Of a stretch of DNA of 64,000 nucleotides, positions 46,551-63,554 are shown piece after piece. The translations under genes were made by a program, and so were the position numbers. This stretch comes from Escherichia coli (GTDB lineage: Bacteria > Pseudomonadota > Gammaproteobacteria > Enterobacterales > Enterobacteriaceae). The DNA lies in assembly GCF_016026235.1 (NCBI RefSeq), contig NZ_CP065613.1; one strand, 5' to 3'. Positions within the stretch are counted from its first letter, which is position 1; each line of letters starts with the position of its first letter. Below the pieces are notes generated by a model. The model ran no database searches. It saw only the letters and a program-made list of their open reading frames with translations, and had not been told where the DNA came from.

Positions 46551-46640
46551 CCAGGCCGGATAAGGCGTTCACGCCGCATCCGGCAATCGAGCACAATGCC
46601 TGATGCGACGCTGCCGCGTCTTATCAGACCTACGAAAGCT
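46551..46640. repeat. REP elements
   Basis: ggccggataaggcgttcacgccgcatccggca and gcctgatgcgacgctgccgcgtcttatcag palindromic units between yghU and hybG. Confidence 0.8.
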
Positions 46641-56594: not shown

Positions 56595-57479
56595 ATGTCT
56601 CATTTAAAAGACCCGACCACGCAGTATTACACTGGTGAATATCCCAAACAGAAACAACCGACGCCAGGCATCCAGGCGAAGATGACACCGGTACCGGATT
56701 GCGGCGAGAAAACCTATGTTGGTAGCGGTCGCCTGAAAGATCGTAAAGCACTGGTGACAGGGGGCGATTCCGGAATAGGTCGCGCTGCCGCCATCGCTTA
56801 CGCGCGTGAAGGGGCTGACGTGGCGATCAGTTATCTTCCCGTGGAAGAAGAAGACGCTCAGGATGTGAAAAAGATCATTGAAGAATGCGGTCGCAAAGCC
56901 GTTCTGCTGCCAGGCGATTTAAGCGATGAGAAGTTTGCCCGTTCGTTGGTTCACGAAGCGCATAAGGCGTTAGGCGGGCTGGATATTATGGCGCTGGTCG
57001 CCGGGAAACAGGTTGCCATTCCTGATATTGCAGACCTCACCAGCGAACAGTTTCAAAAGACCTTTGCCATTAACGTTTTCGCGCTGTTCTGGCTAACCCA
57101 GGAAGCGATCCCCCTGCTACCGAAAGGTGCAAGTATCATCACCACTTCGTCAATCCAGGCATACCAGCCAAGTCCGCATTTACTGGACTATGCGGCTACG
57201 AAGGCGGCGATTCTGAACTACAGCCGTGGCCTGGCAAAACAGGTCGCGGAGAAAGGTATTCGGGTGAATATTGTCGCGCCAGGCCCTATCTGGACGGCAC
57301 TACAAATTTCCGGCGGACAAACGCAGGATAAGATCCCGCAGTTTGGTCAGAAAACGCCGATGAAGCGTGCGGGGCAACCGGCGGAACTGGCCCCAGTATA
57401 TGTTTATCTGGCAAGTCAGGAGTCGAGCTACGTCACCGCAGAAGTGCACGGTGTGTGCGGCGGCGAGCATTTAGGTTAA
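56595..57479 (+). CDS. yghA: short-chain dehydrogenase/reductase
   Basis: Glycine-rich cofactor motif [12 protein letters not shown]; 294 aa. Confidence 0.85.
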
Positions 57480-57484
57480 AAAAT

Positions 57485-57510
57485 GCCCGGTTGTGAAAAG
57501 CAACCGGGCA
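57485..57510 (+). terminator. candidate terminator hairpin after yghA
   Basis: gcccggttg / tgaaaag / caaccgggc; weak T tract. Confidence 0.35.
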
Positions 57511-57534
57511 TCATTGTGAATTCACTCTTACCTG

Positions 57535-57745
57535 ATGTGGCGAAAACGCCTTATCCGCCTACAAACGCATGAAGATTCAACATGTTGCAATAGATTTTGT
57601 AGGCCTGATAAGCGTAGCGCATCAGGCATTGAGCACCTAATGCCGGATGCGGCGTGAACGCCTTATCCGGCCTACAAACGCACGAAGATTCAACATGTTG
57701 CAATAGATTTTGTAGGCCTGATGAGCGTAACGCATCAGGCAATTC
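57535..57745. repeat. REP/BIME array with two copies of an 85-bp composite unit
   Basis: cgccttatccggcctacaaacgca.gaagattcaacatgttgcaatagattttgtaggcctgat.agcgta.cgcatcaggc occurs twice, flanking a canonical REP (tgccggatgcggcgtgaacgccttatccggcctac). Confidence 0.85.
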
Positions 57746-57749
57746 TACT

Positions 57750-58175
57750 TTACTTCGCTTTGGCGGTTTCTTCGCCGACCAGACCTATCTTCAGGTAACC
57801 CGCCTGATGCAGCGTATCCATTACCTTCATCAACGTCTCGTAATCGACGGTTTTGTCCGCTCGGAAGAAGATGGTGGTGTCTTTCTTACCTTCGGTTAAC
57901 GCATTCAACGCCGTAATCATTGTTTCATCGGTGACCGGATCGTTACCGATAAACATCGAGTTGTCTGCCTTCACCGACAGATAAACCGGTTTTTCCGGGC
58001 GCGGCTGCGGCGTGCTGGTAGAAGCAGGTAAGTTCACCTTCACATCTACCGTCGCTAACGGTGCCGCCACCATAAAGATAATCAGCAGAACCAACATCAC
58101 GTCGATAAACGGCGTCACGTTGATATCATGCATTTCGCCGTTATCATCGAGGTTTTCGTTAAGATGCATTGCCAT
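57750..58175 (-). CDS. exbD: TonB-system biopolymer transport protein ExbD
   Basis: 141 aa matching recalled ExbD. Confidence 0.9.
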   Translation of the reverse strand: MAMHLNENLDDNGEMHDINVTPFIDVMLVLLIIFMVAAPLATVDVKVNLPASTSTPQPRPEKPVYLSVKADNSMFIGNDPVTDETMITALNALTEGKKDTTIFFRADKTVDYETLMKVMDTLHQAGYLKIGLVGEETAKAK

Positions 58176-63450: not shown

Positions 63451-63554
63451 GCTTTTTACGCCTCAAACTTTCGTTTTCGGGCATTTCGTCCAGACTTAAG
63501 TTCACAACACCTCACCGGAGCCTGCTCCGGTGAGTTCATATAAAGGAGGAACGT

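Follow-up and report, generated by a model that had tools for sequence, protein, structure and literature searches.

The spacer between the convergent genes yghA and exbD of Escherichia coli is occupied by a repeated palindromic sequence, and the question raised by this locus is what such a repeat is, how it came to lie between two transcription units and what it does to their transcripts. REP elements and the BIMEs that they compose have been known since 1984. In the window (the whole 64-kb stretch of DNA that was analysed), yghA ends on the + strand with a TAA stop at 57477-57479 and exbD on the - strand with a TAA stop at 57750-57752, leaving a spacer of 270 bp inside which the array extends over 57531-57741. 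The segment 57400-57900 (501 nt), which served as the query for strain comparison, is 100% identical to FDAARGOS_943, in whose annotation yghA and exbD are the genes that flank the array. A preliminary description had reported a composite REP array between the convergent yghA and exbD at 57535-57745; the repeat is real, lies at the place given, and is the element catalogued in K-12 as REP222 (PMC10100675). The array is therefore already known, with published Northern data, and the preliminary description was a correct observation of an ordinary, already named element. We consider it likely that this REP222 BIME, composed of two BIME-1-like modules, is an insertion of ~233 bp before a terminator shared by the two transcription units, and that it acts in the decay of exbBD and yghA RNA. 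As a discovery the locus carries little weight; the practical gains concern the status of two open reading frames, the true terminator, the content of the exbBD 3'UTR and the polymorphism of the spacer, and the allele frequencies, the split bidirectional terminator and the IS621 insertions are mildly useful new points.

To describe the repeat, we combined a repeat search with a global alignment of the units. The search found a direct repeat of 72 nt (57557-57628 against 57670-57741, 96% identical, offset 113 nt) with a leftward extension of 27 nt (57531-57557 against 57643-57669, 85% identical, offset 112 nt), and in the global alignment the full units, 57531-57628 (98 nt) and 57643-57741 (99 nt), are identical at 91 of 99 positions with one indel. 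The array thus defined consists of two tandem modules with a period of 112/113. A 30-mer taken from the unit has exactly two occurrences in the 64-kb window and none in 100 shuffles; Tandem Repeats Finder reported nothing on the array, probably because only ~1.9 copies are present, and its silence is uninformative. Within each module, a Y-type REP is followed by a 36-nt L linker with an IHF-like core and then by an inverted, short Z-type REP, and the two modules are joined by a 13-nt head-to-head linker. The unit had been given as 85 bp long, occurring twice and flanking a canonical REP. Two units do exist, but the repeated unit measures 98/99 nt in the global alignment, and the canonical REP at 57642-57675 is itself the first element of the second unit; because a degenerate Y copy (57531-57562) also heads the first unit, the REPs number four in total. 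The inverted repeats CCTACAAA...TTTGTAGG that had been noticed are present in the repeat search and correspond to the CTAC/GTAG feet of REPs in opposite orientation.

Read along the + strand, the array is preceded by the left flank of the insertion (CATTGTGAATTCACTCTTA, 57512-57530), delimited from the allele alignment and the sequences; from ~57518 on, this flank is missing in the empty allele described below and is homologous, yet diverged, in the one-module alleles. REP 1 (57531-57562, + strand, CCTGATGTGGCGAAAACGCCTTATCCGCCTAC) is a degenerate Y-type unit with 85% identity to its canonical counterpart at 57643-57669, from which it differs by 5 substitutions and one deletion, and its hairpin is weakened to -8.8/-9.6 kcal/mol, as against about -21 for the canonical Y. 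There follow the first L-type tail-to-tail linker (57563-57598, + strand, 36 nt), which contains the palindrome CAACATGTTG and the IHF-like core ATTCAACATGTTG at 57575-57587, and REP 2 (57599-57628, - strand, GTAGGCCTGATAAGCGTAGCGCATCAGGCA), an inverted short Z-type unit with folding energies of -12.9/-13.2 kcal/mol. The reverse complement of 57599-57627 is the published short Z REP GCCTGATGCGCTACGCTTATCAGGCCTAC (PMC11208160). The head-to-head linker that joins the modules (TTGAGCACCTAAT, 57629-57641) is similar to both the 'l' linker of naRNA4/REP325 and that of another REP pair in the window, at 46554-46630. The second module begins with REP 3 (57642-57675, + strand, GCCGGATGCGGCGTGAACGCCTTATCCGGCCTAC; -21.3/-20.9 kcal/mol), a canonical Y-type unit whose 34 nt all agree with the E. 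coli REP consensus given in PMC12306157, and continues with the second L-type linker (57676-57711, + strand, 36 nt, IHF-like core at 57688-57700) and REP 4 (57712-57741, - strand, GTAGGCCTGATGAGCGTAACGCATCAGGCA; -13.4/-13.9 kcal/mol), again of the short Z type. In the exbD mRNA, the stem of REP 4 begins 9 nt past the stop codon, after the spacer AGTAGAATT.

All four units fold on either strand, with energies from -8.8 to -21.3 kcal/mol, as expected of the palindrome of 20-40 nt that characterises a REP or palindromic unit (PU), and the conserved GTAG/CTAC foot is present throughout, with CCTAC ending at 57562 and 57675 and GTAGG starting at 57599 and 57712. The array is extragenic, lying between the stop codons of yghA and exbD, and the 501-nt query has a median of 33 matches per E. 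coli genome. By palindrome, foot tetranucleotide, Y and Z consensus, extragenic position and high repetition, the units are REPs. The spacer as a whole folds far better than its shuffles on both strands (z = -6.4 and -7.7). In global RNA folds the REPs pair across the modules into one long hairpin, a predicted structure that is a possible alternative to the local REP hairpins, and these models support no specific structure. A promoter inside the array was considered and rejected, the stretch 57480-57749 containing no promoter-like site.

In the published scheme, a BIME-1 combines Y with Z1 around a long conserved L linker, frequently with an IHF site, and occurs in single copy (Ton-Hoang 2012, PMC3333891); a BIME-2 combines Y with Z2 around a short S linker and occurs in tandem copies joined by s, l or r linkers, and atypical BIMEs are chimeras in multiple copies (PMC3333891). 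Each module taken alone, with its Y(+), 36-nt L-type linker with IHF-like core and inverted short Z(-), resembles a BIME-1 (RIP/RIB), and the one-module alleles of other strains (L002, L011, L012) look like a textbook single BIME-1. Unlike a BIME-1, the array of the window, shared with ~66% of genomes, has two tandem modules, and its first Y REP is degenerate. Its likeness to a BIME-2 is confined to the tandem arrangement and the head-to-head linker, whereas the tail-to-tail linker is of the 36-nt L type and not a short S, and the Z is the short form. Because two modules with a BIME-2-like head-to-head linker depart from the single copy of a BIME-1, the array, judged on its sequence, appears to be a duplicated BIME-1-like module that is best filed as an atypical BIME. 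The short Z would be Z1, to judge from the Rfam alignment, in which the Z of naRNA4 is 7 nt longer; the naRNA4 unit has been called Z2 (PMC4550694).

The Rfam alignment also bears on how far the array can be equated with a known RNA. The Z-linker-Y core at 57602-57672 (- strand) matches the naRNA4 model (RF02564) with 68.1 bits, above the gathering score of 59.5, and with the linker aligned. In this the array resembles naRNA4/REP325, but its Z is without 7 nt of the model's Z2 and the locus is a different one; the model, built on a Y-linker-Z2 pair of REP325, responds in practice to any two REPs arranged as Y-linker-Z, and the match does not imply a REP325 product. The nucleoid-condensing role of naRNA4 was itself not reproduced, and its function is disputed (bioRxiv 10.64898/2026.03.23.713779).

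Comparison of the spacer across strains, which the preliminary description had proposed as a check, confirmed the repeat and revealed it to be polymorphic, with 0, 1 or 2 modules in the 5,426 complete E. coli genomes compared. Of these, 3,606 cover the 501-nt query to 80% or more, and the central L-Z-linker-Y-L junction is at least 99% identical in ~3,590, which are two-module alleles (~66%). In 1,575 genomes (29%) the site is empty: the spacer is reduced to 38 bp, in which a terminator hairpin and CATTTTTATTT run directly into the exbD stop, and the U-tract is kept. One-module alleles account for <1%; 16 genomes resemble one of them, L002, at 95% identity or more, and further one-module types occur in EC42405 and EC931, the latter being exactly module 1 of the window. 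The one-module alleles share the insertion point and the flanks, and their L linkers diverge from each other far more than the flanking genes do. Outside E. coli, Escherichia sp. MOD1-EC7003 carries the empty allele with an identical junction. A scan of genome contigs for the hairpin pattern returned one Escherichia locus and four unrelated chance matches, so that a single outgroup underlies the polarity assigned to the insertion. The simplest reading of these alleles is that an element, now ~233 bp long, inserted between the exbD stop and the terminator hairpin and was later duplicated. Such an insertion would have split a symmetric bidirectional terminator and moved the + strand U-tract off its hairpin. 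The element is dispensable, and since 29% of strains are without it, any role that it has is at most modulatory and non-essential. In the strains with diverged one-module alleles (L002, L011), the 3' haplotype of exbD is nearer to that of MOD1-EC7003 (L010) than to that of K-12, which suggests, at the level of sequence, either a divergent lineage or recombination at the locus.

This pattern lends itself to another interpretation, in which the array is mainly a selfish or neutral mobile repeat that arrived by a single insertion and was duplicated by TnpA-REP (RAYT), slippage or recombination, with any effects on RNA being incidental. A largely neutral, selfish origin is a serious reading, to which we give somewhat less than an even chance. 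Polymorphism in both presence and copy number (1,575 empty sites, ~3,600 two-module alleles and a few with one module) is what such a repeat would leave, as is the divergence of the one-module alleles, whose differences among themselves and from the window greatly exceed those of the flanking genes. The first Y REP is decaying, with -8.8 kcal/mol against -21.3 for the canonical Y, and BIMEs are known to vary in copy number, with cleavage and recombination by TnpA-REP observed in vitro (PMC3333891). Against this stands the fact that the two-module allele is in the majority and highly conserved, some 3,590 genomes being at least 99% identical over the central junction; moreover, a selfish origin is compatible with effects on RNA at the locus and not opposed to them. 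The reading that we prefer, that of a REP222 BIME acting in exbBD and yghA RNA decay, depends on where the two transcripts end and on how their REP-containing remnants decay.

The terminator that the two units share is not a REP. At 57483-57511, directly to the left of the insertion, lies a hairpin formed by a perfect 11-nt inverted repeat (ATGCCCGGTTG-loop-CAACCGGGCAT), which folds with -22.0 kcal/mol on the + strand and -20.5 on the - strand and is found in every allele, including the empty one. An A6 run upstream of the hairpin on the + strand provides the U-run of the - strand transcript, and on the + strand only 3 U occur in the 8 nt past the hairpin. In stationary-phase K-12, this hairpin is recorded as the bidirectional terminator of exbB:exbD:yghA (Table S16, bioRxiv 10.64898/2026.03.23.713779), with a dG of -22, 6 A upstream, 3 U downstream and an overlap of 37 nt between the convergent 3' ends (bioRxiv 10.64898/2026.03.23.713779). 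It thus belongs with the bidirectional terminators of the SEnd-seq class, and where the site is empty it is flanked by an A-tract as well as a U-tract; it departs from them in that the hairpin adjoins a REP array without being part of it and that in the filled allele the + strand U-tract is displaced by ~233 nt. The features of an intrinsic terminator were found in the hairpin 57483-57511 alone, with the + strand U-tract only in the empty allele. A consensus terminator scan detected no terminator in the array and also missed this hairpin, a threshold artefact in that an extra G-U pair on the - strand leaves 4 of 8 U in the tail. The array had been described as probably a terminator or mRNA-stability element; the spacer does hold a bidirectional terminator, but the recorded element is the adjacent non-REP hairpin and not the REPs. 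Because this terminator lies beyond the array for exbBD, the exbBD transcripts that reach it carry all four REPs, and the exbBD 3'UTR contains the whole array. The A-run before the hairpin (57480-57485) has 6 A in the window as opposed to 7 in K-12 and most of the other alleles compared, so that in this strain the exbBD terminator has one U fewer in its tail.

Whether the REPs might themselves be the main terminator or attenuator of the locus, acting partly via Rho as REP325 does and preventing collision or antisense read-through, has to be weighed here. REP325 is a partially Rho-dependent attenuator, and 78 REPs coincide with bidirectional terminators, REP222 being flagged among them (bioRxiv 10.64898/2026.03.23.713779); on the + strand, moreover, the hairpin is without a U-tract, so something downstream must stop the read-through from yghA. 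The position of the recorded ends points the other way, the 37-nt overlap of the convergent 3' ends lying at the non-REP hairpin and not inside the array. The sequence of the array offers no U-tracts behind the REP hairpins, the terminator scan found nothing there, and exbBD transcripts must cross the entire array to arrive at their mapped end. We therefore regard the array as an unlikely candidate for the main terminator, and return to RNA decay as the preferred role.

The stability part of that earlier proposal has published support at this very locus. The genes exbB, exbD and yghA are assigned to REP222, listed as 'REP222a-d, REPv222e' with 5 REPs (PMC10100675, Tables 1 and 2), and all three are among the 50 transcripts most increased by ATP depletion induced with fluoride (NaF) (PMC10100675). 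K-12 REP222, an entry of the EcoCyc/EcoGene catalogue, occupies the same locus with the same architecture, and its spacer, at about 3150547-3150817 of NC_000913.3, departs from that of the window at three sites, of which two lie in REP stems and the third is an A of the A-run. Where the catalogue has 5 REPs, we see four REP hairpins; given that the annotated REP222 overlaps the terminator by 27 nt, the fifth (variant e) is probably the non-REP terminator hairpin. On Northern blots, full-length yghA mRNA of ~1,000 nt has a half-life of 2.8 min and is outlived by an intermediate of ~300 nt with a half-life of 6.2 min (PMC10100675). With NaF, or when the degradosome scaffold of RNase E is deleted, the half-lives of both RNAs exceed 16 min, and both are also stabilised in rne-ts at 44 C (PMC10100675). 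REP-containing RNA of this array therefore persists as a ~300-nt intermediate that is longer-lived than full-length yghA, and its clearance needs RNase E and the degradosome (PMC10100675).

The identity of the intermediate has to be read with the probe in mind. The oligonucleotide used, yghA_REP (TGCCTGATGCGCTACGCTCATCAGGCCTA; PMC10100675), pairs with + strand RNA of the final Z REP in the K-12 array; since it is nearly palindromic and fits a common Z REP, RNA from the exbBD 3'UTR or from elsewhere in the genome could give a signal as well. The segment from the exbD stop to the terminator on the opposite strand is likewise ~270 nt long, close to the ~300 nt of the intermediate. The ~1,000 nt of the "full-length" species fits termination at the hairpin better than read-through into the array, which would give ~1,200 nt.

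From these observations we propose the following course of events. By separating the hairpin from its downstream U-tract, the insertion would make yghA termination leaky, so that some yghA transcripts would extend into the array. In the classical account of REPs, the best supported one here, their stem-loops would be barriers to 3'-to-5' exonucleases on the RNA and would shield the upstream mRNA, and the REP-containing decay intermediates would need RhlB/PNPase and poly(A) for their clearance. An influence on translation is also conceivable: a REP situated less than 16 nt behind a stop codon is reported to lower translation of the gene before it (Liang et al. 2015, quoted in PMC12306157), and REP 4, 9 nt past the exbD stop, lies within this range. 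At the empty site, the exbD stop is followed at 5 nt by the terminator hairpin itself, and because both distances (5 nt empty, 9 nt filled) are below 16 nt, the effect on translation may not differ between the alleles and is possibly equal. Any effect of REP222 on the expression of exbD and yghA is extrapolated from other REPs and from decay intermediates. Against such an effect, genes with and without terminal REPs show no genome-wide difference in half-life; convergent pairs with a REP show higher expression (bioRxiv 10.64898/2026.03.23.713779). From REP325, it has been argued that REPs are context-dependent, dual elements of the 3'UTR, acting as partly Rho-dependent attenuators and as stabilisers (bioRxiv 10.64898/2026.03.23.713779).

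The array could also act on DNA and not on RNA. It would then be an architectural site, in which gyrase-binding REPs and two IHF sites at a distance of 113 bp form a topological buffer between the convergent units, and we consider this rather improbable as its main role. Both L linkers carry ATTCAACATGTTG, which has one mismatch to the IHF core WATCAANNNNTTR, the L linker of a BIME-1 has been described as an IHF site, and REPs as binding sites of gyrase and Pol I (PMC3333891); by Topo-Seq, gyrase cleavage is enriched at BIME-2, mainly in the Y REPs. Accordance with the consensus alone is weak evidence for the two candidate IHF sites, near-matches of one-mismatch quality occurring ~1.2 times per kb in the window, and the text of Prieto 2012 (IHF ChIP) does not mention REPs. 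The gyrase enrichment, furthermore, was reported for BIME-2 and not for elements with an L linker, IHF-occupied sites correlate negatively with gyrase sites, and the element is missing from 29% of strains. IHF binding at L and gyrase binding at Y are thus roles known at the level of the family, which may extend to this copy. As a component of the preferred reading, in which the array acts chiefly through RNA decay, the two L linkers would probably bind IHF when on DNA.

That the allelic series (empty with a symmetric terminator, one module, two modules, disrupted by IS621) could tune the expression of the TonB-energising ExbBD complex and of YghA between lineages is a speculative extension, and we hold it to be doubtful. 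If it does so, the series would be a natural experiment on a REP array in a 3'UTR and on a bidirectional terminator whose U-tract has been displaced. The polymorphism itself (0, 1 or 2 modules, with or without IS621) could be used for strain typing or for testing the effects of REPs on an iron-uptake operon.

The two open reading frames that the array creates are mechanical. One, of 63 aa (57551-57742, - strand), lies wholly inside the array, and the other, of 81 aa (57654-57899, + strand), starts in the array and runs antisense into exbD; neither is a gene, and both had already been called spurious in the preliminary description, a judgement borne out here by the lack of a Pfam match for either, by the RefSeq genomes listed, which annotate no CDS between yghA and exbD, and by the fact that the DNA is missing in 29% of genomes. 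That they encode small proteins is scarcely credible: the frames are open over 63 and 81 codons and RefSeq still lists a similar ORF of REP origin, yahH, but the sequence is repeat-derived, matches no family and is unannotated in the RefSeq genomes listed, the frames are destroyed or missing in the empty, one-module and IS621 alleles, and the 81-aa frame runs antisense through exbD. We rejected coding potential for both ORFs, which had no Pfam match, and they should stay out of gene annotation. In the case of yahH, the REP array lies in the yahG-yahI spacer (L013/L014; STE15 and F11) and shares the short Z unit, with a short tail-to-tail linker; RefSeq enters it in STE15 as 'protein YahH', a partial CDS flagged as a pseudogene, and has no annotation for it in F11.

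The array is also a target of IS621. Both Z REPs hold the natural IS621 target ATCAGGCCTAC on the - strand (57599-57609 and 57712-57722), and in at least two strains, E29 (L004/L017) and O177:H21 (L016), the first Z REP is interrupted by IS621 precisely at GTAG|GCC, in agreement with the bridge-RNA target described in the literature and with its CT core. On either side of IS621 in E29, the remainder of the two-module array is intact. Strain W2-5 has a perfect match to the same junction between IS621 and the Z REP; the junction query is not specific to this locus, since IS621-REP junctions elsewhere match it too well.

Two other REP arrays are present in the window. At 46554-46630 there is a Y-linker-Z pair with the long form of Z, which scores 84.8 bits against the Rfam naRNA4 model, above the pair in the array itself, and whose head-to-head linker, AATCGAGCACAAT, resembles 57629-57641. 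A further BIME array, at 13974-14275, has three Y REPs (13974, 14108 and 14241) with a 133-nt period, which alternate with diverged inverted units (GTAGGCACGATAAGC.../GTAGGCCCGATAAGC...) around a different long linker, and one of its units carries the IS621 variant target GTAGGCCCGAT at 14182. Among the Rfam matches above the gathering score are also C0719 RNA (21085-21306, 295 bits) and ES173 sRNA (63453-63516, 99 bits), both unrelated to the array.
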